Assembly (NCBI GenBank): GCA_963702005.1
Contig: OY969696.1
Location: forward strand, 3,680,001 to 3,744,000
Source of the DNA: Candidatus Aminicenantes bacterium
GTDB lineage: Bacteria > Acidobacteriota > Aminicenantia > Aminicenantales > JAFGBC01
Direction: 5' to 3'
DNA length: 64,000 nt
Each line of letters opens with the position of its first letter. The stretch's first letter is position 1. The notes under the pieces were generated by a model that ran no database searches, was not told the DNA's origin, and worked only from the letters and a program-made list of their open reading frames with translations. Below, piece by piece: positions 42,712 through 62,526 of the stretch. Made by a program: the position numbers and the translations under genes.

Positions 42712-43509
42712 ATGAGAACAAGCGAATTCTTTGCCACGCATCCCGTTTTTTCCCTCGATGAAGCCGCGAAGGTTTTAGAGGTGCCCGGCGGTCGGTCCGG
42801 GACAGTGGAACGTCTCAAGCATTATCTTGAAAAAAAACGGCTGAGACTAGTGACTCGCGGGGTTTATGCGGTCATGCCGCCCGCTTTGAACACCGATCAA
42901 TTCCAACCGGATCCTCTCCTCGTGGCCCAAGCGGTTCGACCCGACGCCGTTTTTTCGCATCATAGCGCCCTCGAGCTTCTCGGCGCGGCACACTCTCTCT
43001 GGAACCAGGGCGCCGTTTACACGAGAAAGCGGCGGAGGCCGCTCCGCCTGGACGGCGGACGCATCTATTTTTTAGATCATCCCCATCCCATGAGAAACAA
43101 AGCTGGAACATATTTCGCGACCCAAAAAATAGAACGGCGGGGAAAACTGCTCGAAGTGACCACGCCCGAGAGGACGCTCGTCGAGGGATTCCGCCGGCCG
43201 GCCCTGGCCGGCGGGCTGGAGGAATTTGTGCGCTCAGCGGCCGGCTTTCCGGTCCTCGATCTCGATCTTCTCGAGGAGATCCTTCAGCGCTACGACATGG
43301 CCTATCTTTGGGTTTCGGCCGGCTGGTTCTTGGAAAAATTCCAAAAGAGTTTTCATGCCTCCGAAAACGTCATTCATCGAATGGAGCGGCGCCGGCCGCG
43401 GTCTCCGCACTATCTTGAACGGGGAAGCCGCGGCGGTTCGCTGTCGACAAGGTGGAACCTGATCCTGCCCAAGTCGCTTCTACAGTTGGGAGAGCCGGAT
43501 GAAACCTAG
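42712..43509 (+). CDS. Type IV TA antitoxin, AbiEi family
   Basis: N-terminal wHTH (VTRGVY), SHHSALELLG, TTPERTLVE, RWNLILP. Confidence 0.85.
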   Translation: MRTSEFFATHPVFSLDEAAKVLEVPGGRSGTVERLKHYLEKKRLRLVTRGVYAVMPPALNTDQFQPDPLLVAQAVRPDAVFSHHSALELLGAAHSLWNQGAVYTRKRRRPLRLDGGRIYFLDHPHPMRNKAGTYFATQKIERRGKLLEVTTPERTLVEGFRRPALAGGLEEFVRSAAGFPVLDLDLLEEILQRYDMAYLWVSAGWFLEKFQKSFHASENVIHRMERRRPRSPHYLERGSRGGSLSTRWNLILPKSLLQLGEPDET

Positions 43510-44476
43510 CCTCGAATTCCTTGAGCGTTGTTCGGCCCAAACCGGTTTCCAGATAGCGGCGCTGGAAAAAGTCATCCGGCTTGGAGAAATGGCCGGGGAT
43601 ATCGCACGGCATCCCCTGCTCGGCGGAATTCTCGCCCTCAAGGGAGGGACGGCGTTCAACCTCTGCTTTGGCGGTCAGCCCCAGCGCCTTTCGGTGGACT
43701 TGGATTTCAATTATATCGGCGGCGCCGAACGGGAGAAAATGCTCGAGGCGCGCCCGCGGCTGGAGGCGGCCGTCGCGGATCTCGCTCGCCGCCGGGGATA
43801 TCTGGTTCAGAAATCAGCGGATGCTTTTGCGGGCAGGAAACTTTACCTGCTCTACCGATCCGTACTGAGTCAAAATGATCGAATCGAAATAGACTTGAAT
43901 TTCCTCTTCAGGGTACCCATCGCGGGCACGGAAAAGAAGCCGCTCTGGCAGCCCGGCGAGTTGGACCGGCCGGAGGTTCTGGTCGTCGGCAGGGAAGAAC
44001 TCATAATTGGAAAACTTCTCGCCTTCCTGGAGCGCGGCGCGGCAAAGGACGTCTGGGACACCGCCCACATAAAAGAGTCCGCCGACAATGTCCTGAAGTC
44101 CGTTCTTTTTCGAGCCAGGTTCATCGCGATGTCGGCCGTTCTTGATCATCCCCTTCCCAGCTATGGCCGTTCGCGTCTCGAGGGTCTCGTTACGGACCGT
44201 ATCGCCGTCGAACGGCTCGGTCCGATGCTGGCGCTAAGGTCCGTTCCCCCGGCCAAAGAACTCATTGAAAAGGCATGGACGGTTGTCGACCCGTTCCTCA
44301 AACTGGATCCCCCAGAGGAGGAATACATCAAGGCTATTTATGAAGGTGAACTCAAGACGGAGCGTCTCTTCCCGGAAGCGCCGGAAGAAGCCGCGAGATT
44401 CAAAGGACATCCGGCCATCTTATGGAAGCTGGCCAATATCAGAAAAAATCTGAAGCGCCCAACGGGAACCCCATGA
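43499..44476 (+). CDS. Type IV TA toxin, AbiEii/AbiGii nucleotidyltransferase
   Basis: LEKVIRL, LKGGTAFN, RLSVDLDF, GKLLAFLER...KDVWD. Confidence 0.9.
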   Translation: MKPSLEFLERCSAQTGFQIAALEKVIRLGEMAGDIARHPLLGGILALKGGTAFNLCFGGQPQRLSVDLDFNYIGGAEREKMLEARPRLEAAVADLARRRGYLVQKSADAFAGRKLYLLYRSVLSQNDRIEIDLNFLFRVPIAGTEKKPLWQPGELDRPEVLVVGREELIIGKLLAFLERGAAKDVWDTAHIKESADNVLKSVLFRARFIAMSAVLDHPLPSYGRSRLEGLVTDRIAVERLGPMLALRSVPPAKELIEKAWTVVDPFLKLDPPEEEYIKAIYEGELKTERLFPEAPEEAARFKGHPAILWKLANIRKNLKRPTGTP

Positions 44477-46167
44477 AAAACAAGGAGCTGGCCGTCCTGT
44501 TCGACCGCATCGCCGACGCCCTTGACATCAAGGGCGAGCAGGCCTTCAAGGTCCTCGCCTACCGCCGCGCCGCCCGCATCCTCGACGAGATGACGGACGA
44601 CGTCGCCCAGATCGCCGCCGCCGGCAAGCTCGAGGATATCCCCGGCATCGGGAGCGGAATCGCCAAGAAGATCCAGGAGTACATCCAGACCGGCGAGATG
44701 CAGAAGTATAAGGAAGCCCTCTCCGGCATCCCGCCCGGCCTCCTGACCCTCCTCGACATCCAGACCCTGGGCGCGAAAACGATCAAGCTCATGCACGACG
44801 AGCTCGGCGTCGCCTCCCTCTCCGGCCTCAAGAAGGTCATCGCCGACGGCCGTCTGGCCGCCCTCCGCGGCATGGGCGACAAAAAAGTCGAAAACATCCG
44901 CAAGGGGATAGAGCTCTTCGAGAAGGCCTCCCAGCGCGTCTCGATCTGGGCGGCCCTCCGCGTCGCCGCTTCCCTGATCGATCACCTCAAGGAATCCGGC
45001 CTGGTCGACAGGATCGAGGCAGCCGGGTCGCTCCGCCGCATGAAAGAGACCGTGGGCGATATCGACGTCCTCGCCTGCGCCAAGAAGAGCGGCGGCAAGG
45101 ACGGCGCCCGCATCATCGAGCGCTTCACGCACGCCCCCGACGTCAAGCGCGTCCTGGCCGCCGGCGCCACAAAAGCCTCGGTCATGGTCGCGACCGAGGA
45201 CGGCGAGCGCCAGGTCGACCTCCGCCTCGTGGACCGCTCAGAATATGGAGCCGCCCTCCAGTATTTCACGGGCTCCAAGGCCCACAACATCAAGCTTCGC
45301 TCCATGGCCAAGGACAAAGGCCTCAAGATCTCCGAGTACGGCGTCTTCAAGGGCGCGCGGAAGATCGCTGGCGCCGCCGAGGAGGAGGTCTACGCCGCCC
45401 TCGGCCTGGCCTGGGTTCCGCCCGAGATGCGCGAGGACCGCGGCGAGGTCGAGCTCGCCCTCGCCCGCCGCCTCCCGGCCATCCTCGACTACGGCGACAT
45501 CAAGGGCGACCTCCACGTCCACTCCAACGCGAGCGACGGGACGCTCACCCTGCGAGAGATCGCCGACCACGGCCGCCGTATGGGCTATTCCTATATCGCG
45601 ATCTGCGACCATTCCCAGAGCGTGAAATACGCCCACGGCCTCTCCCCCGACCGCCTGCGCCGGCAGATGAAGGAGATCGACGCCCTCAACCGCTCGCTCA
45701 AGCCGAAGCGCTTCCGCCTCCTCAAGGGGACCGAGGTCGATATCCTTGCTGACGGCTCGCTCGACTTCCCGGATTCTCTGCTCAAGGAGCTCGATTTCGT
45801 GGTCGCCGCGATCCACTCCGGGTTCAAGAAGAACGTGACCGAGCGGATCCTGAAGGCTATGGAGCATCCCTACGTGAAGGTCATCGCCCATCCAACGGGC
45901 CGCCTCATCAGCGGCCGCGAGGGGTACGCCGTGGATATCGAGAAGGTCATCGCGGGCGCGAAGCGCACCGGCAAGGCCCTTGAGCTGAACGCTTACTACG
46001 ACCGTCTCGATCTCGATGAGTTCAACTGTAAACGTGCCCGTGAGCTCGGCGTAAAAATTAGCATTGGCACCGACTGTCACGCCGCCAGTGGCCTTGAGAT
46101 GATGCGCCTCGGCGTCGGCATCGCCCGCCGTGCCTGGCTGGGGAAATGCAATATTTATGAACTCTAG
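44473..46167 (+). CDS. polX: DNA polymerase X with PHP domain; extreme C-terminus replaced
   Basis: AGSLRR, GDIDVL, QVDLR, YFTGSKAHN; PHP motifs DLHVHS, DHS, EVDI, AHPTGR, TDCH. Confidence 0.95.
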   Translation: MKNKELAVLFDRIADALDIKGEQAFKVLAYRRAARILDEMTDDVAQIAAAGKLEDIPGIGSGIAKKIQEYIQTGEMQKYKEALSGIPPGLLTLLDIQTLGAKTIKLMHDELGVASLSGLKKVIADGRLAALRGMGDKKVENIRKGIELFEKASQRVSIWAALRVAASLIDHLKESGLVDRIEAAGSLRRMKETVGDIDVLACAKKSGGKDGARIIERFTHAPDVKRVLAAGATKASVMVATEDGERQVDLRLVDRSEYGAALQYFTGSKAHNIKLRSMAKDKGLKISEYGVFKGARKIAGAAEEEVYAALGLAWVPPEMREDRGEVELALARRLPAILDYGDIKGDLHVHSNASDGTLTLREIADHGRRMGYSYIAICDHSQSVKYAHGLSPDRLRRQMKEIDALNRSLKPKRFRLLKGTEVDILADGSLDFPDSLLKELDFVVAAIHSGFKKNVTERILKAMEHPYVKVIAHPTGRLISGREGYAVDIEKVIAGAKRTGKALELNAYYDRLDLDEFNCKRARELGVKISIGTDCHAASGLEMMRLGVGIARRAWLGKCNIYEL

Positions 46168-56547: not shown

Positions 56548-56625
56548 GGACCTTCCCCCCTTAAATCAGTCCAGGTATAATGAGAAAAACCTGGGAGAAA
56601 GGAGTTTTGATGGGCAGGGTACGGT
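56548..56625 (+). mobile_element. Isolated IS3-family left end
   Basis: 56558-56598 matches 49029-49069 at 39/41 nt; followed by AAGGAG + ATG GGC AGG. Confidence 0.7.
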
Positions 56626-56699
56626 CGTGTCAAGATTAGCTCGCAACTTCGGGGCCATCGTAACCCTCTTCAGCTCGCCACCTGAGCTGCCATGAAGGC
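56626..56699. repeat. ~75 bp imperfect direct repeat, copy 1
   Basis: Similar to 62451-62526 (core CTCTTCAGCTCGCCRCCTGAG). Confidence 0.7.
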
Positions 56700-56787: not shown

Positions 56788-57790
56788 TCAGTGTGAGGCG
56801 TTCCCAAGAATCCTATCTCCAACAAGCTTCAGCACATCGGGTGAAATCGTTTCGTCAATCTTGGCATATTCCCTCGGGTGGCCGGTTTGGGCTGTTTGGA
56901 AAAGGTGATTCAAGCCAGGGAGCATTTTGATTTCATAATGGGTATTCCCTGCCTCTTTAAGCGCTTGTTCGATTGCGGCAAGGTTGATGTCGGCCCGCAC
57001 CTGAGTATCCTTATCCCCGTTCAGGGCAAGGACAGGGCAGCGGACCTTTCGCAGCGCCGTCGCTGGGTCATAGCCGGCAATGAGGCGGGCCCAGGGATAA
57101 TCGGCGGCGAGCTCCTTCCAATCCGAAAGAACAGACGCTTCGCTGGCACTTAATTCCTTTTTCTCCGCGTCCGTCATGCCGGTCAGGGATGCTGCGATGA
57201 TCCGTTTGAATTCGGGTTCCGCTTCCTGATAATTATCATGGCTTCGGATCGCCCGTATCAGCCGTTCATTCATAAGGTCTGCTTTGCGGACGGCTTCCGG
57301 GCCGGCGCCGCCGCTCCTCGCAGTATCCTCAAGCTGTTCCATGAGCAGCCGATCTCCCGGGACCCCGGTTCCCGCCAGCAAGACGAGAAACGCCACCTCC
57401 GAATTTCGGGCCGCGACCATGGGAGCGATGATTCCGCCTTCGCTGTGACCGATGAAGCCGATTTTACGGTCGTCGCAGCGCAGGACGGCGATCCCCCTGC
57501 GCGTCAGGGCGTCGGCCCAGACCAGGAACGGCCGGTGGCCGGCGATCGTCGAATCCCGGTCCTGGGGGCCGGAACCGCTGACGAGCACGGCCGCGGGAAA
57601 GGGGCCCGGGCCGGCGGGGATGGTTTTGGCTCCCGGAGTCCGCGGCCATCTTGCCTTCGAAGACGATCCCGTAGCTGCTCATGTCCAGGACGAGGTTGGG
57701 CGGCGTGAAACGGACCTCCTGGACGGACATGGCGCGGGATTTCTGAGCGGGGATGGAAAGTTTGTTCTCGCTCGCGGTCATCGTTGCCGC
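56788..57790 (-). pseudogene. Alpha/beta hydrolase with internal deletion and broken 5' end
   Basis: SGSGPQDRD, GHSEGG, KDTQV, LNHLFQ present, but LRCDDR joins directly to KIGFIG; N-terminal portion in another frame. Confidence 0.75.
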
Positions 57791-57813
57791 CTGCTGGCAG
57801 GCCCAGAAAGGGT

Positions 57814-58554
57814 ATGGACCCGGTCTATATTCTGTTCGGCCTGGTCGCCTTCCCCCTGTTCGCCGCCGCATCCTATTTCGCTCTCGCCTTCGCCGCCGGG
57901 ATCCTGGACGAGGAGTTCTCGCGGCGCATTCGGATCGCTTTCATCCTTTTTTGGGCGGTTCTATTCGCGCTGTTCCTGGTGAGGATCCAGTTCGCCCTGC
58001 GCGGGATGAGAATTCCGCCCGCCGTCCGGACGCTGAACATGGTATTGGGGATGGGCATGGGCGTCTCCCCCATCGCCATCAATGTATATATGATGGTTCG
58101 GGCAGGGCGGCGCTCGCGCTCCGAGGAGAGGGCGGGGCTGGTGAAGTTCGGGGCCGTTTCCCTGGCCGGCTACCTGCTGCTGATCGCGGCCATGATCATA
58201 CCCCAGGCCGGCCTGCCGTTCCGATTGGCTGTCCCGCTCTTGTTGGGGATCGCGATGCTATCCCCGGTTTTGGTTTTGAGGGGGTTCCTGACGCGCTTCT
58301 ATCGGCCGATCCCGGCCGGGATCTTCGAGGGGCCGACGCTCGGCGGGCTGTGCGAGCGGTGCGGGCTCTCGAACCGGGAAGGGGAAATCCTGGGCCTGCT
58401 TCTACGGGGAAAGAGCAACAAGGAGATCGAGAGGGATCTGTTTATATCGCCCCATACGGTCCGGAACCATATCCATAACATCTACCAGAAGCTCGGGGTG
58501 GGGAGCCGCCTGCAGCTGATGAATTTCGTGAGGACGAGGATCGAATTGGACTGA
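57814..58554 (+). CDS. Membrane-bound LuxR-family HTH regulator (possibly 5'-truncated)
   Basis: Several TM helices then LSNREGEIL...GKSNKEI...ISPHTVRNHIHNIYQKLGV. Confidence 0.85.
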   Translation: MDPVYILFGLVAFPLFAAASYFALAFAAGILDEEFSRRIRIAFILFWAVLFALFLVRIQFALRGMRIPPAVRTLNMVLGMGMGVSPIAINVYMMVRAGRRSRSEERAGLVKFGAVSLAGYLLLIAAMIIPQAGLPFRLAVPLLLGIAMLSPVLVLRGFLTRFYRPIPAGIFEGPTLGGLCERCGLSNREGEILGLLLRGKSNKEIERDLFISPHTVRNHIHNIYQKLGVGSRLQLMNFVRTRIELD

Positions 58555-59739: not shown

Positions 59740-60008
59740 GGCAACCTCCCTCCTATCCCGAGAGGGTCGTCAGGATCCCCCCGGAACATGCCTTTCAATA
59801 TTTTAATACGCCCCAAAAGGCCAAATCATTCAGGGCGACGTTCACCGGGCTTTGGGGAGAAGCTGCCAGCGTGTGTGGGCGGCGTAAGCGGTGTTCGCAC
59901 GCAGGCTGGAATTCAGGCCGATTTCCCATCCCGCCCCTGGGGACAAGCATAAATTCCGGTTTCGAGAAAGTCAAGAGCTTGAGGGCTCATGTTTTGCATT
60001 AAGGCTCG

Positions 60009-60121
60009 ATGAGCATGGGTGTCTCCCCCATCGCCATCTATGTCTATATGATGGTTCGGGCGGGGCGGACCTCGCGCTCCGAAGAGAGGGCGGGGCTCGT
60101 GAAGCTCGGGGCCGTTTCCCT
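60009..60121 (+). repeat. Diverged 113 bp copy of an internal segment of the LuxR gene (58051-58163)
   Basis: Both translate MGVSPIAIxVYMMVRAGRxSRSEERAGLVKxGAVSL. Confidence 0.85.
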
Positions 60122-60169
60122 TATTGTGCGAATAATCTCGCATGAAATATATCTTGAAATAGTATATAC

Positions 60170-60211
60170 AAAGTGCTATTATTCAATTAATAAATGAATT
60201 ATTGCGCTTTT
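60170..60211. promoter_or_regulatory. Imperfect inverted repeat upstream of second AbiEi (probable operator)
   Basis: AAAGTGCTATTATTCA-N9-TGAATTATTGCGCTTT. Confidence 0.5.
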
Positions 60212-60219
60212 GGTGTAAC

Positions 60220-61026
60220 ATGGAAACCATATCAGGCTTAGGGAAAAAGGACAGAAAAAGGCTCTCGGCGATTTTCCGGGAAACAAAGGGGACTATTTCC
60301 GTAAGAGAAGCGGCCGGCATCCTGGATATCGATTCTACCGATGCGGCTAAGATGCTTTCTCGGTGGGCGCGGAAAGGCTGGCTTTCCCGTATTCGGCAAG
60401 GCTTATACGTGCGCGTGCCGCTGGAGTCGAGCACTCCCGATATCCCTCTCGAAGACCCATGGATCGTCGCCGACCGCTTGTTTTCCCCATGCTATATAGG
60501 CGGATGGAGCGCCGCGGAATACTGGGATCTCACCGAGCAGATTTTTCGCACGATTGTCGTCATGACAACCAAGAGACCCAGGGATCGCGCCCCCGTCTTA
60601 AAGGGGACGAGCTTTATGCTCCGCACCGTGTCTGAGAAAACATTGTTCGGAACAAAGTCTATATGGAGAGGGCAGGTCAAAGTGTCCATTTCCGATCCCT
60701 CCCGGACCATCCTCGACATGCTGGCCGACCCCCGTCTCGGCGGTGGGATACGCCCGACCCTGGACCTGTTCTTGAACTACATGAAATCCGAGAATAAGGA
60801 CGTTTCCCTCCTGACCGAATATGCCAAGCGCCTGGGCAACGGAGCCGTTTTTAAGCGTCTCGGATTCTTGATGGAACGCTATGCTCCCGATCAGGCCGCG
60901 GCCATCGCTCTCTGTAGGGCTCAGCTGACGAAAGGGCTCGCCAAACTTGATCCCTCTCGAAAGGCCGGAAAGTTGGCGACTCGCTGGAGGCTGTGGGTGC
61001 CGGAGAATTTGGCCAAGGAGAAGTAA
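60220..61026 (+). CDS. Type IV TA antitoxin, AbiEi family
   Basis: wHTH (GWLSRIRQGLY), YIGGWSAAEYWDLTEQ, SDPSRTILD, KRLGFL, RWRLWVP. Confidence 0.9.
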   Translation: METISGLGKKDRKRLSAIFRETKGTISVREAAGILDIDSTDAAKMLSRWARKGWLSRIRQGLYVRVPLESSTPDIPLEDPWIVADRLFSPCYIGGWSAAEYWDLTEQIFRTIVVMTTKRPRDRAPVLKGTSFMLRTVSEKTLFGTKSIWRGQVKVSISDPSRTILDMLADPRLGGGIRPTLDLFLNYMKSENKDVSLLTEYAKRLGNGAVFKRLGFLMERYAPDQAAAIALCRAQLTKGLAKLDPSRKAGKLATRWRLWVPENLAKEK

Positions 61027-61027
61027 T

Positions 61028-62425
61028 ATTATCACCCATCGGGAGATTATGGAGTTTTCCAGGGAATTCGGCCTTACGCCTAATATAATCGAGAAGGATT
61101 ATTTGCTTGGCTGGCTGCTGGCCGGCATCTCGAATCATCCTGAACTCGGTCAGAGTTGGATTTTCAAAGGCGGCACGTGCCTTAAGAAATGCTATTTCGA
61201 AACCTACCGTTTTTCCGAAGATCTGGATTTCACGCTCGCCCGGGCTGAGCACCAAGACAAGGATTTCCTGATCGGCGCGTTCAAGAAAATCGCGAACTGG
61301 ATTTACGATGCCGCGGGCATCGAAATCCCTCGTGAATCGATACGATTTGATTTGAATACAAATCCCCGCGGAAAAATATCCGTGGAGGGACGGATCTACT
61401 ATAAAGGACCTCTCGGATTCGCGGGACCTTTGCCTCGCATCAAATTGGACTTGACCGCGGATGAGATCCTTGTCTTGAATCAGGTTTCGCGCGAAGTCAA
61501 TCATCCCTATTCCGATAAACCGGCTGGCGGGATCCACTTCAAGTGCTACGGGTTTGAGGAGCTCTTCGCCGAAAAGGTCAGAGCCCTGGGAGAGCGGTTA
61601 AGGCCAAGAGATCTTTATGACGTCGTTCATCTCTACAGGCATTTCGGAACGGGCCAAAACCGCGAGCTTGTTTTAAGCACGCTAAAGAAGAAGTGCGAAT
61701 TCAAAGAAATTCCCCTCCCTGTCATGGAAACACTCGAGGGCAAGCCGGAACGAGCCGAATTGGTTTCCGAATGGAATAGCATGCTGGGCCACCAAGTGCC
61801 CGTCTTACCGCCCTTTGAACAATTCTGGCAAGAGCTTCCGGAATTATTCGACTGGCTTTATCGCGCGGTAGAGAAGGCTGCCCCCGCATCCATGCCTGCT
61901 ATTAAGGGCGAGGATATTGACACGACGTGGCATCCCCCTGCCATGGCCCAAGCCTGGCATATGGCTATTCCTCTTGAGGTCATTCGCTACGCCGCTACGA
62001 ATAGGTTGATTGTCGACTTAGCCTATGGAGGAAGTCGACGCCTGATAGAACCATACTCTTTAAAACGGACTCGAGAAGGTAACCTGCTCCTCCATGCTGT
62101 AAAACATGAATCGGGAGAGTCCCGATCTTATAGGGTTGACCGTATTGAAGGCGCAAAGGTTACCCAGAGGTCATTTCGGCCGAAATACGCCATCGAGCTG
62201 ACAATTAAAGAGCCCTATCAAGCTCTCCCGACATCGAAGAGGTCGGCCTGGATAAAGCCGATCAGTCGTTTGCATGACTCGGGACCCAAATATATTTTCA
62301 AATGCAGCCTATGCGGTAAGAGATTCACTAAAAAGTCATTTGATGCGACTCTCAAAAACCACAAAAACAAATTCGGACATCCTTGCCCGAGCCAAATAGG
62401 ATTATATGTCGCAACGAAATACTAA
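61028..62425 (+). CDS. AbiEii nucleotidyltransferase fused to WYL domain and C-terminal Zn finger
   Basis: IEKDY, FKGGTCLKK, RFSEDLDF, AEKVRAL..R.RPRDLYD; RLIEPYSL...RSYRVDRI; CSLC...H...C; start ATT 61028 or ATG 61049. Confidence 0.88.
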   Translation: MITHREIMEFSREFGLTPNIIEKDYLLGWLLAGISNHPELGQSWIFKGGTCLKKCYFETYRFSEDLDFTLARAEHQDKDFLIGAFKKIANWIYDAAGIEIPRESIRFDLNTNPRGKISVEGRIYYKGPLGFAGPLPRIKLDLTADEILVLNQVSREVNHPYSDKPAGGIHFKCYGFEELFAEKVRALGERLRPRDLYDVVHLYRHFGTGQNRELVLSTLKKKCEFKEIPLPVMETLEGKPERAELVSEWNSMLGHQVPVLPPFEQFWQELPELFDWLYRAVEKAAPASMPAIKGEDIDTTWHPPAMAQAWHMAIPLEVIRYAATNRLIVDLAYGGSRRLIEPYSLKRTREGNLLLHAVKHESGESRSYRVDRIEGAKVTQRSFRPKYAIELTIKEPYQALPTSKRSAWIKPISRLHDSGPKYIFKCSLCGKRFTKKSFDATLKNHKNKFGHPCPSQIGLYVATKY

Positions 62426-62450
62426 AAAGCGAGCGGGTAACGAGAGAGGC

Positions 62451-62526
62451 CGTATCAAGATAAGTTAATAACTTCAGGGCCATCATATAGCTCTCTTCAG
62501 CTCGCCGCCTGAGTTACCGGGAAGGC
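62451..62526. repeat. ~75 bp imperfect direct repeat, copy 2
   Basis: Similar to 56626-56699. Confidence 0.7.

Follow-up and report, generated by a model that had tools for sequence, protein, structure and literature searches.

In the AbiE system of Streptococcus agalactiae, the antitoxin AbiEi binds the toxin AbiEii and induces its auto-phosphorylation at T65—a residue situated on the loop between helix 3 and strand 2—by which the nucleotidyltransferase (NTase) activity is abolished; the substrates known for the family are single-stranded tRNA 3' ends (accessible part of bioRxiv 10.64898/2026.01.19.700257). The NTase family has four conserved motifs, and the phospho-acceptors described for the MenT toxins are T39 in MenT1, with D41 as the base, and S78 in MenT3 (accessible part of PMC11375011). 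A fusion of a DUF1814 NTase with a WYL domain was listed by Makarova et al. 2014 (PMC4012209), who, in the accessible passages of that paper, proposed ligand sensing for it. The present work deals with one such fusion, encoded in a stretch of 64,000 nucleotides from Candidatus Aminicenantes bacterium (GenBank assembly GCA_963702005.1, contig OY969696.1, positions 3,680,001 to 3,744,000 of the forward strand), which will be designated here as the window. The locus consists of two co-directional genes, abiEi followed by that of the toxin AbiEii, the latter composed of an N-terminal NTase core, a WYL domain, a basic linker and a C-terminal zinc finger.

As judged from its sequence, the locus is a genuine AbiE module and an ordinary member of a widespread and already catalogued AbiEii-WYL sub-family. 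The architecture is not an unusual one, and neither the fusion nor the idea of a built-in sensor is new to the literature: the toxin falls into an AbiEii sub-family catalogued by PADLOC (PDLC02317) that has thousands of homologues, and both the fusion and the sensor idea are present in the accessible part of the 2014 paper (PMC4012209). The statement of the first-pass annotation that no functional characterisation of the architecture is known, on the other hand, agrees with full-text searches of the accessible literature (supplementary files not covered), in which no functional study of a WYL-AbiEii fusion was found; the term "WYL" occurs 0 times in the text of bioRxiv 10.64898/2026.01.19.700257. 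As both the architecture and the idea of a sensor date back 12 years, the value of the locus lies in the role of the tail and not in a new kind of system, that role concerning one of the most abundant defence families.

The catalytic core and its antitoxin

The toxin gene (61049–62425, plus strand) codes for 458 residues from an ATG, of which residues 1–275 (61049–61873) represent the DUF1814 NTase core, as indicated by Pfam, by Foldseek and by invariant motifs. The Pfam family AbiEii (PF08843) matches residues 23–261 (2.1e-38), and the PADLOC AbiEii model PDLC02317 (396 positions) covers residues 1–390 (9.4e-176). The complete set of motifs reported in the first-pass annotation (KGGT, SEDLDF, EK and RDLYD) was confirmed: KGGT at 40–43, SEDLDF at 56–61 (S56–D60 at 61214–61228), D134, E175-K176 and RPRDLYD at 185–191 are all invariant in the alignment of 20 homologues exhibiting 62–71% identity. 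It should be pointed out that the assignment of the family motifs to these residues is our own reading of the toxin sequence. With regard to structure, the N-terminal half of the full-length AlphaFold model retrieved, in a Foldseek search, MenT4 (6y56; 3.5e-8) as well as MenT3/TglT (about 2–8e-6), with 6j7o and 6y5u at about 2–4e-6. This model has a mean predicted local distance difference test score (pLDDT) of 67.6 and a predicted template modelling score (pTM) of 0.56; its domains are not confidently packed on each other and their relative placement was not read further. The variable linker between the NTase core and the WYL domain (residues 276–305; 61874–61963, plus strand) coincides with a region of pLDDT below 50 (residues 273–306).

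As for the start of the toxin, the TTG at 60947, given in a mechanical listing of open reading frames (ORFs), is unlikely because it overlaps abiEi. Many homologues begin seven codons before the ATG used here (MIDRQEIM...), where the window copy has ATT, at 61028.

The antitoxin/repressor gene abiEi (60220–61026, plus strand) is separated from the toxin gene by 22 nt and encodes a protein of 268 residues with an N-terminal winged-helix part and a C-terminal antitoxin part. It had been described as a normal AbiEi, and both Pfam (AbiEi_4; 1.7e-8) and PADLOC (AbiEi model PDLC02271; 8.9e-114) bear this out. The accompanying statement that such systems are usually controlled only by the antitoxin level is out of date in the light of the auto-phosphorylation induced by AbiEi (accessible parts of bioRxiv 10.64898/2026.01.19.700257 and PMC11375011). 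Concerning the present toxin, S56 is invariant in the 20 homologues, precedes the first catalytic aspartate, D58, by two residues and is located, in the full-length model, on the loop between the helix 45–51 and the strand 58–63, as described for T65. The threonine of the KGGT motif, T43, was also considered as the phospho-acceptor, but it was rejected, since according to the papers the phosphate is accepted by the residue two positions ahead of the catalytic aspartate, which here is S56.

When AbiEi and the full-length toxin were co-folded using purpose-built alignments and three controls, the interface score ipSAE reached 0.62, against 0.00 for the best control; 58 of 80 solved complexes, as well as 2 of 110 mismatched pairs, attain this mark. 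At least 79% of the contacts are common to the runs, the pLDDT of the partner being at least 82. On the side of the toxin, the confident interface involves residues 55, 57–58, 101–132, 185 and 232–249, so that the contacts flank S56; on the side of AbiEi, it involves residues 106–111 and 148–151 and the invariant loop G174-G-G-I-R178. There is no confident contact with any toxin residue beyond 249, the residues not listed being uncertain rather than excluded. AbiEi is thus predicted to dock on the active-site face of the NTase and not on the tail, and this co-fold of AbiEi on the active site is one of the points that are new here.

The WYL barrel, the basic linker and the zinc finger

The WYL domain—an Sm-like β-barrel with a degenerate triad but with EPYS and RSYRVDRI kept—covers residues 306–385 (61964–62203, plus strand) and was delimited from Pfam and from structure matches. 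Pfam WYL (PF13280) matches residues 310–371 with 26.4 bits (cut-off 21.8), and 42 of the 43 related tails fit the same model with E≤0.01 (5.7e-11 in the best case). When PDB sequences were searched with profiles of the tail, WYL proteins appeared only at E-values of 1.4–1.6, or not at all in the 60 rows listed; since no useful E-values were obtained in this way, fold searches were needed. The tail model, i.e. residues 296–458 folded alone on an alignment of 43 diverse sequences, has a pLDDT of 84.9, with values over 90 in the barrel and over 95 in the finger. The first 24 rows returned for it by Foldseek are all WYL proteins (PafBC, DriD, BrxR and CapW). VIA-align, covering 48,161 chains, gave PafBC with Z 11.9 (root mean square deviation (rmsd) 2.0 Å over 79 residues), CapW bound to single-stranded DNA (ssDNA) with Z 11.8 and DriD with Z 11.5; WYL proteins fill its top nine rows, and the next places are taken by designed SH3 barrels (Z 8.9 and 8.2) and by Hfq/Sm proteins (Z≤8). 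The same alignment contains at Z 7.5 the entry 6oaw ("CRISPR Cas-related protein"), which we take to be WYL1. On the evidence of the model, the tail of the toxin carries a true WYL five-stranded Sm/SH3-like barrel. The WYL-type domain proposed in the first-pass annotation is therefore retained, and the possibility it had named as speaking against its idea—a C-terminal region without a WYL/SH3-like fold—is not what the searches returned.

In the alignment to DriD, the position of the W-Y-L triad is occupied by L346-L347-L348, just as had been read from the sequence. This does not bar the domain from WYL membership, since the triad of the characterised DriD is degenerate as well, reading NYL (accessible part of PMC9186387). 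The strand R359-S-Y361-R362-V-D-R-I366 aligns to R204-S-W206-R207-L-D-R-M of DriD, this correspondence leaning on the fold match because the E-value from the hidden Markov model is weak (1.4); within the strand R204-S-W206-R207 of DriD, the arginine and the tryptophan contact ssDNA (accessible part of PMC9186387). The segment E334-P-Y-S337 matches E-P-W of PafB/C.

The barrel is followed by a basic linker (residues 386–412; 62204–62284, plus strand) that is disordered (pLDDT below 50) and varies in length among the homologues. Beyond the barrel, the net charge of the protein amounts to +12 (mean +12.7 and range +3 to +21 in the 43 sequences), the net charge of the NTase core being −6. The protein ends with a CCHC finger (residues 413–458 and the stop; 62285–62425, plus strand; pLDDT above 95), the four ligands of which—C419, C422, H438 and C446—are invariant in all 43 diverse tails, in keeping with the CxxC...H...C pattern noticed earlier. 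The fourth ligand is C446, not the adjacent H444, and the spacing is x2/x15/x7 in 39 and x2/x15/x8 in 4 of the 43 tails. A classical C2H2 finger (C-x2-4-C-x12-H-x3-5-H) was ruled out on the basis of this pattern (C-x2-C-x15-H-x7/8-C). No Pfam family fits the finger consistently across the 43 tails, all the matches being weak: zf-C2H2_4 on residues 417–440 scores 11.9 bits, below its cut-off of 27, C2H2 models recognise 1–4 of the 43 tails with E≤0.01, and for Zn_ribbon_8 there are 12 such tails, with scores below its cut-off. A profile search against PDB sequences gave weak matches to C2H2-like fingers (7.6e-4 to a six-finger protein), and the look-up of residues 405–458 in the ESM Atlas provided no lead, both hits (scores 0.79 and 0.76) being WYL-bearing fragments; the VIA-align rows cover residues 5–86 of the tail model, i.e. 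the part without the finger. By its conserved pattern, the tail is seen to end in a CCHC finger of no classified family.

We argue, on models and by analogy, for the tail—WYL domain, basic linker and finger on a flexible tether—being a single-stranded nucleic-acid-binding module, because it combines the WYL barrel, the RSYR strand, the EPYS segment, the basic charge and the invariant finger, all tethered to an acidic NTase. In CapW, ssDNA binding is lost when the conserved Ser or Arg of the WYL domain is mutated. Another possibility is a role in assembly or targeting, according to which the tail would dimerise the toxin, tether it to the nucleoid, the ribosome or phage DNA, or contribute DNA binding to the control of the operon next to AbiEi. 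WYL regulators are indeed dimers (accessible part of PMC9186387), the tail is highly basic and has a C2H2-like finger motif, and the AbiE of Lactococcus lactis was reported to disturb phage DNA packaging (introduction of bioRxiv 10.64898/2026.01.19.700257, accessible part), which could suit a DNA-directed tail. The toxin, however, is devoid of the WCX dimer domain, and AbiEi already supplies a winged-helix repressor together with an operator, so that this role appears unlikely.

Relatives, operator and genomic setting

A word-indexed protein search revealed at least 7844 relatives at E≤0.001 among 8000 scored candidates; the 120 relatives listed are nearly all 449–494 residues long, 59–71% identical over the full length and annotated with PF08843 and PF13280. 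At the level of genomes, at least 532 relatives were found among 600 pattern-matched genome stretches (one genome per species), and the best 80 of these stretches—further referred to as the related loci—cover Acidobacteriota, Nitrospirota, Thermodesulfobacteriota, Alpha-, Beta- and Gammaproteobacteria, Chloroflexota, Planctomycetota and others. Among cultured organisms, full-length copies are carried by Rhizobium, on megaplasmids, and by Aromatoleum toluvorans Td21. In 79 of the 80 related loci, the gene directly upstream of the toxin codes for an AbiEi homologue, the toxin match of the single exception beginning at residue 38. There is no third conserved gene around the 80 loci, the largest clusters of neighbours being tyrosine integrase (11/80) and the type I methylase HsdM (8/80). 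The HsdM neighbours are mostly positioned immediately downstream and, in two loci (L011:7410-8900 and L013:7407-8921), start within about 10 nt of the toxin stop; the AbiE-WYL pair would thus often stand at the head of type I restriction-modification operons.

An exhaustive profile search with the tail alone recovered 198 representatives (clustered at 50%) at E≤1e-30, a number that rose to 757 at E≤1e-10. Among the best 150 of the 198, the WYL-finger module is always C-terminal, in proteins of up to 490 residues. All 10 sampled proteins of 296–380 residues carry an N-terminally truncated piece of AbiEii before the module, and 80 proteins of 89–286 residues with the module, mostly singletons on short contigs, look like fragments. 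No stand-alone or otherwise-fused WYL-finger protein was seen among the matches listed, which contain fragments of AbiEii fusions alone. Within these matches, the WYL-finger unit thus appears dedicated to AbiEii, and its being seen on AbiEii alone is a second new point.

Turning to the fate of the finger, it is present in 60 of the 80 related loci. The remaining 20 consist of 3 contig ends, 4 interrupted or frameshifted genes, 2 genes decayed in mid-finger and 11 complete ORFs of 387–428 residues that end after the WYL domain. The two mid-finger cases (L022:6001-7410 and L058:6001-7332) begin the finger normally (...YV.QCSLCGKKF and ...YVFRCTV, respectively) and then diverge, so that their tails look like frameshift decay. 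A FastTree of the NTase and WYL parts was calculated from 71 rows, with 10 of the 80 loci left out: the 3 contig-end loci, the interrupted or partial L060, L062, L067, L070 and L084, L072 with its split match, and L071, a Gracilibacteria record with possibly another genetic code. To explain where the finger is missing, this tree requires 12 changes, and well-supported branches force at least 9 of them; fingerless rows do not cluster more than they do with shuffled labels (the number of changes was as low in 297 of 500 shuffles), the largest fingerless group being one pair. This suggests that the finger is lost often, yet fingerless lineages do not persist, and that the finger may matter over the long run. 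A finger invariant in 43/43 tails yet lost at least 9 times at the tips of the tree is likewise new here.

Concerning the region upstream of abiEi, a promoter-like site, TTGAAA-17 nt-TGcTATTAT with an extended −10 (60154–60182, plus strand), was recognised by consensus match alone (10/12 plus TG). Overlapping its −10 hexamer is an operator-like imperfect inverted repeat, ATTATTCA-N9-TGAATTAT (60178–60202), with the core TTCA-N9-TGAA at 60182–60198. The first-pass annotation had pointed to such a repeat, but the repeat of the window taken alone would not carry the claim: its arms ATTCAATTA/TAAATGAAT (60181–60199) are not above chance, being equalled by 12 of 30 shuffles, and a search for inverted repeats with 6-nt seeds found nothing in 60130–60220. 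It became credible because the core recurs in position across 67 upstream regions, i.e. the window and the 66 of the 80 related loci with a placeable start. The core TTC[AG]-N9-[CT]GAA is found at −45 to −30 in 18 of the 67 regions (200 shuffles: mean 0.12, maximum 1) and at −125 to −95 in 16 (shuffles: at most 2), with both sites in 10. The window copy keeps the proximal site alone, the distal place being taken by GC-rich DNA that ends in a 114-bp copy of a luxR-type gene piece. TTCA-N9-TGAA over the −10 hexamer is thus a putative AbiEi operator kept in related loci, and this motif, with the proximal copy alone in the window, completes the new points. In S. agalactiae, two inverted repeats are reportedly bound by AbiEi in a cooperative manner, as Hampton et al. 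are said to have described in 2018.

The two genes occupy a low-GC islet of the window, the GC content being 0.44–0.56 over approximately 59950–62500 and 0.58–0.67 on either side, and this islet sits outside any defence island. The left junction is formed by the 114-bp copy (60008–60121, plus strand), directly 3' of which the GC content drops from about 0.60 to 0.44. As found by blastn of the window against itself, the copy is 91% identical to an internal piece (58050–58163) of a luxR-type (GerE) gene located two genes upstream (57784–58554); the segment has only two copies genome-wide. It looks like the scar of the recombination event by which the cassette arrived and the distal operator was lost. 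The same copy yields a spurious ORF of 62 residues (60009–60197), and exactly between the luxR-type fragment and the promoter-like site there is a terminator-like hairpin (60124–60145; TTGTGCGAATAATCTCGCATGA and then an A/T-rich run). On the right flank, self-comparison of the window revealed a 79-bp stretch (62448–62526, plus strand) that is 77% identical to 56623–56699 and has two copies in the genome; the former is situated just 3' of a minus-strand metallophosphoesterase gene and the latter just 3' of a minus-strand α/β-hydrolase gene. The abiE cassette is thus bracketed by copies B'...A' of sequences ordered A...B about 4–6 kb upstream.

Of 30 related genomes, 1 contains a full-length orthologue, and none was seen in either of the 2 genomes of the same genus (completeness 92% and 83%). 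Full-length copies occur on 4 megaplasmids of Rhizobium and Thiodictyon, the neighbours of the toxin in the tree come from different phyla, and no match at E≤1e-10 was found in 50,697 records of phage genomes. A look-up of sequencing runs listed no RNA run, and the DNA runs listed have small shares, of 0.12 at most, so that they give no indication of expression or habitat. Because of the GC dip, the patchy orthologues, the megaplasmid copies and the cross-phylum tree neighbours, the locus is regarded as a horizontally acquired, self-contained AbiE module. The same setting would also be compatible with a decaying or silent passenger—a solitary islet that has lost its distal operator and carries a truncated gene fragment at its edge. 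The distal TTCA-N9-TGAA, present in 16/67 related regions, is here replaced by that fragment, there is no defence island around the locus, and the genome has 5 other AbiEii loci; both ORFs are nevertheless intact, all the family-invariant residues of the catalytic core, the WYL domain and the finger are kept, and the promoter-like site as well as the proximal operator are retained, which makes a mere passenger quite improbable.

Among the six AbiEii loci in this genome, only the toxin at 61049–62425 carries a WYL domain. The window contains a second AbiE-like pair (42712–44476), the AbiEii of which has 325 residues (Pfam 9.1e-24), is without WYL and overlaps by 11 nt the end of an upstream ORF of 265 residues without a Pfam match; 3' of this pair, at 44422–46167, there is a PolX-type gene (HHH_8, DNA_pol_B_thumb and PHP). 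The sole other WYL match in the genome (C1:3303296–3303508; 36.2 bits) belongs to an open frame of 755 residues.

Role of the tail and comparison with known systems

By comparison with the characterised relatives, AbiEi would repress the operon at TTCA-N9-TGAA over the −10 hexamer and would neutralise the toxin by docking on it and driving, in a Type VII mechanism, the auto-phosphorylation of S56, the position of which would correspond to that of T39 relative to D41 in MenT1 and to the T65 loop of AbiEii. The freed toxin would add nucleotides to RNA 3' ends, most likely to tRNA acceptor ends, stopping translation. The tail would hold the single-stranded end being extended, or the growing product, so that the choice of target would be set and the activity raised, by analogy with the WYL domain in the PIF1 helicase or WYL1 with Cas13d rather than with a pure on/off infection sensor. 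It is this substrate- or product-end clamp that is given, tentatively, a slight preference over the sensor. The leaning is based on the module being dedicated to AbiEii and on there being no predicted packing of it on the catalytic domain; it is also based on the substrates of the family being single-stranded tRNA 3' ends and on the WYL domains of PIF1 and WYL1 stimulating an enzyme (discussion of PMC9186387, accessible part).

The first-pass annotation had suggested allosteric switching by the WYL domain, which the present data do not favour over the clamp. More generally, the toxin would be ligand-gated, the tail sensing phage ssDNA/RNA, DNA damage or a nucleotide and either relieving an auto-inhibition or releasing AbiEi, so that the NTase would be turned on post-translationally. 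The WYL domains of CapW, DriD and PafBC sense ssDNA, CapW and BrxR regulate defence systems, and one WYL regulator senses c-di-GMP (accessible part of the source). In the toxin, the ligand-contact motif R-S-[WY]-R is kept, the tail lies outside the confident AbiEi interface and would hence be free to bind something else, and, the NTase family working without a tail, the latter resembles an accessory layer of control; the trigger of AbiE, moreover, is described as unknown in the introduction of bioRxiv 10.64898/2026.01.19.700257 (accessible part). The gating of the toxin by a ligand is nevertheless regarded as slightly less probable than the clamp: generic sensor modules usually turn up on other effectors or, in some abundance, as proteins of their own, whereas the present one does not among the matches listed; the model predicts no confident contact of the tail with the catalytic domain (pLDDT of the linker below 50, pTM 0.56); and the solved WYL sensors hold ssDNA between the WYL and the WCX dimer domain, the latter being absent from the toxin. 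In its most far-reaching form, the WYL-CCHC tail would make AbiEii a single-chain sensor-effector that reads a nucleotide signal or the single-stranded nucleic acid of a phage (intermediates of its replication or packaging), licenses the NTase and overrides the phosphorylation imposed by AbiEi. This form has to be viewed with slightly more doubt, although, if true, it would reveal what triggers abortive infection of the AbiE type, a question of long standing.

Several points weigh against a nucleic-acid-holding clamp on an AbiEi-controlled NTase as outlined above. Each functional step is transferred to this sub-family by analogy, and the co-fold may have passed owing to memory of the solved S. 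agalactiae complex, the missing tail contacts being no evidence of absence. The other AbiEii sub-families (PADLOC models of 250–310 positions) and the 5 other AbiEii loci of this genome are without WYL, and the characterised members of AbiEii and MenT, which have no tail, still act on tRNA; since these tail-less enzymes work, the tail is not needed for catalysis as such and a regulatory add-on would fit equally well. With at least 9 losses in the 71 rows of the tree, the finger can be done without, at least over short periods. The WYL domains of known ligand in defence and damage regulators (CapW, DriD and PafBC) are all sensors, CapW did not bind U7 RNA, and the tyrosine of the triad, a phosphate contact in DriD (accessible part of PMC9186387), is leucine in the toxin. 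Finally, the S. agalactiae AbiE gave no protection against 32 coliphages (accessible part of bioRxiv 10.64898/2026.01.19.700257), so that not every AbiE can be taken to act in defence. The sub-family is large, crosses phyla and has a built-in tail predicted to bind nucleic acid, and finding the ligand of that tail would lead to the target or the trigger of AbiE; the present survey names S56, D58/D60, R359/R362 and C419/C422 as residues for mutation.

Comparing the locus with the known systems, it shares with the AbiE of S. agalactiae and of L. lactis pNP40 the bicistronic order of antitoxin and then toxin, an AbiEi of the COG5340 type that contains a winged helix, and a DUF1814 NTase in which the same motifs are found. 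The inverted-repeat operators upstream in the S. agalactiae system have a putative counterpart here, and so—as a prediction—has the placement of AbiEi on the active site seen in the solved heterodimer (accessible part of bioRxiv 10.64898/2026.01.19.700257). It differs from both in the tail of approximately 160 residues (WYL, basic linker and CCHC finger) added to the toxin, in an AbiEi of another PADLOC sub-model and in one operator instead of two. The "AbiGII-like nucleotidyltransferase (DUF1814)" with WYL of Makarova et al. 2014 (PMC4012209, accessible part) and PADLOC PDLC02317 exhibit the same architecture; the PADLOC model ends before the CCHC finger, and the accessible passages of the 2014 paper do not mention a finger, although its Supplementary File 6 may show it.

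The MenT/MenA systems provide, with MenT1, MenT3/TglT and MenT4, the best structural matches of the N-terminal domain; the motif KGGT...FS-x-DLDF aligns to MenT4, and the serine or threonine two residues before the catalytic aspartate, which is the phospho-acceptor in MenT (accessible part of PMC11375011), would have its equivalent in S56. They differ in that the sequence identity is 9–18%, the solved chains of 288–292 residues are matched by the N-terminal NTase part alone, and the MenA antitoxins belong to three different families (accessible part of PMC11375011), the partner here being AbiEi. The PIF1 helicase and WYL1-Cas13d resemble the toxin in having a WYL domain attached to, or working with, a nucleic-acid enzyme and stimulating it (accessible part of PMC9186387), but the enzymes are different and they are likened here by description.

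CapW, BrxR, DriD and PafBC, finally, have in common with the toxin the WYL barrel, superposing with Z 10.4–11.9 and rmsd 1.9–4.0 Å, as well as the strand R-S-[WY]-R-x-D-R-[IM]; the links to phage defence and to the sensing of ssDNA are theirs. The toxin, unlike them, is without a helix-turn-helix (according to Pfam) and without WCX, has the triad LLL and has as its output an enzyme on the same chain. It is therefore not a regulator of the winged helix-turn-helix–WYL–WCX type, the WYL domain alone being held in common.

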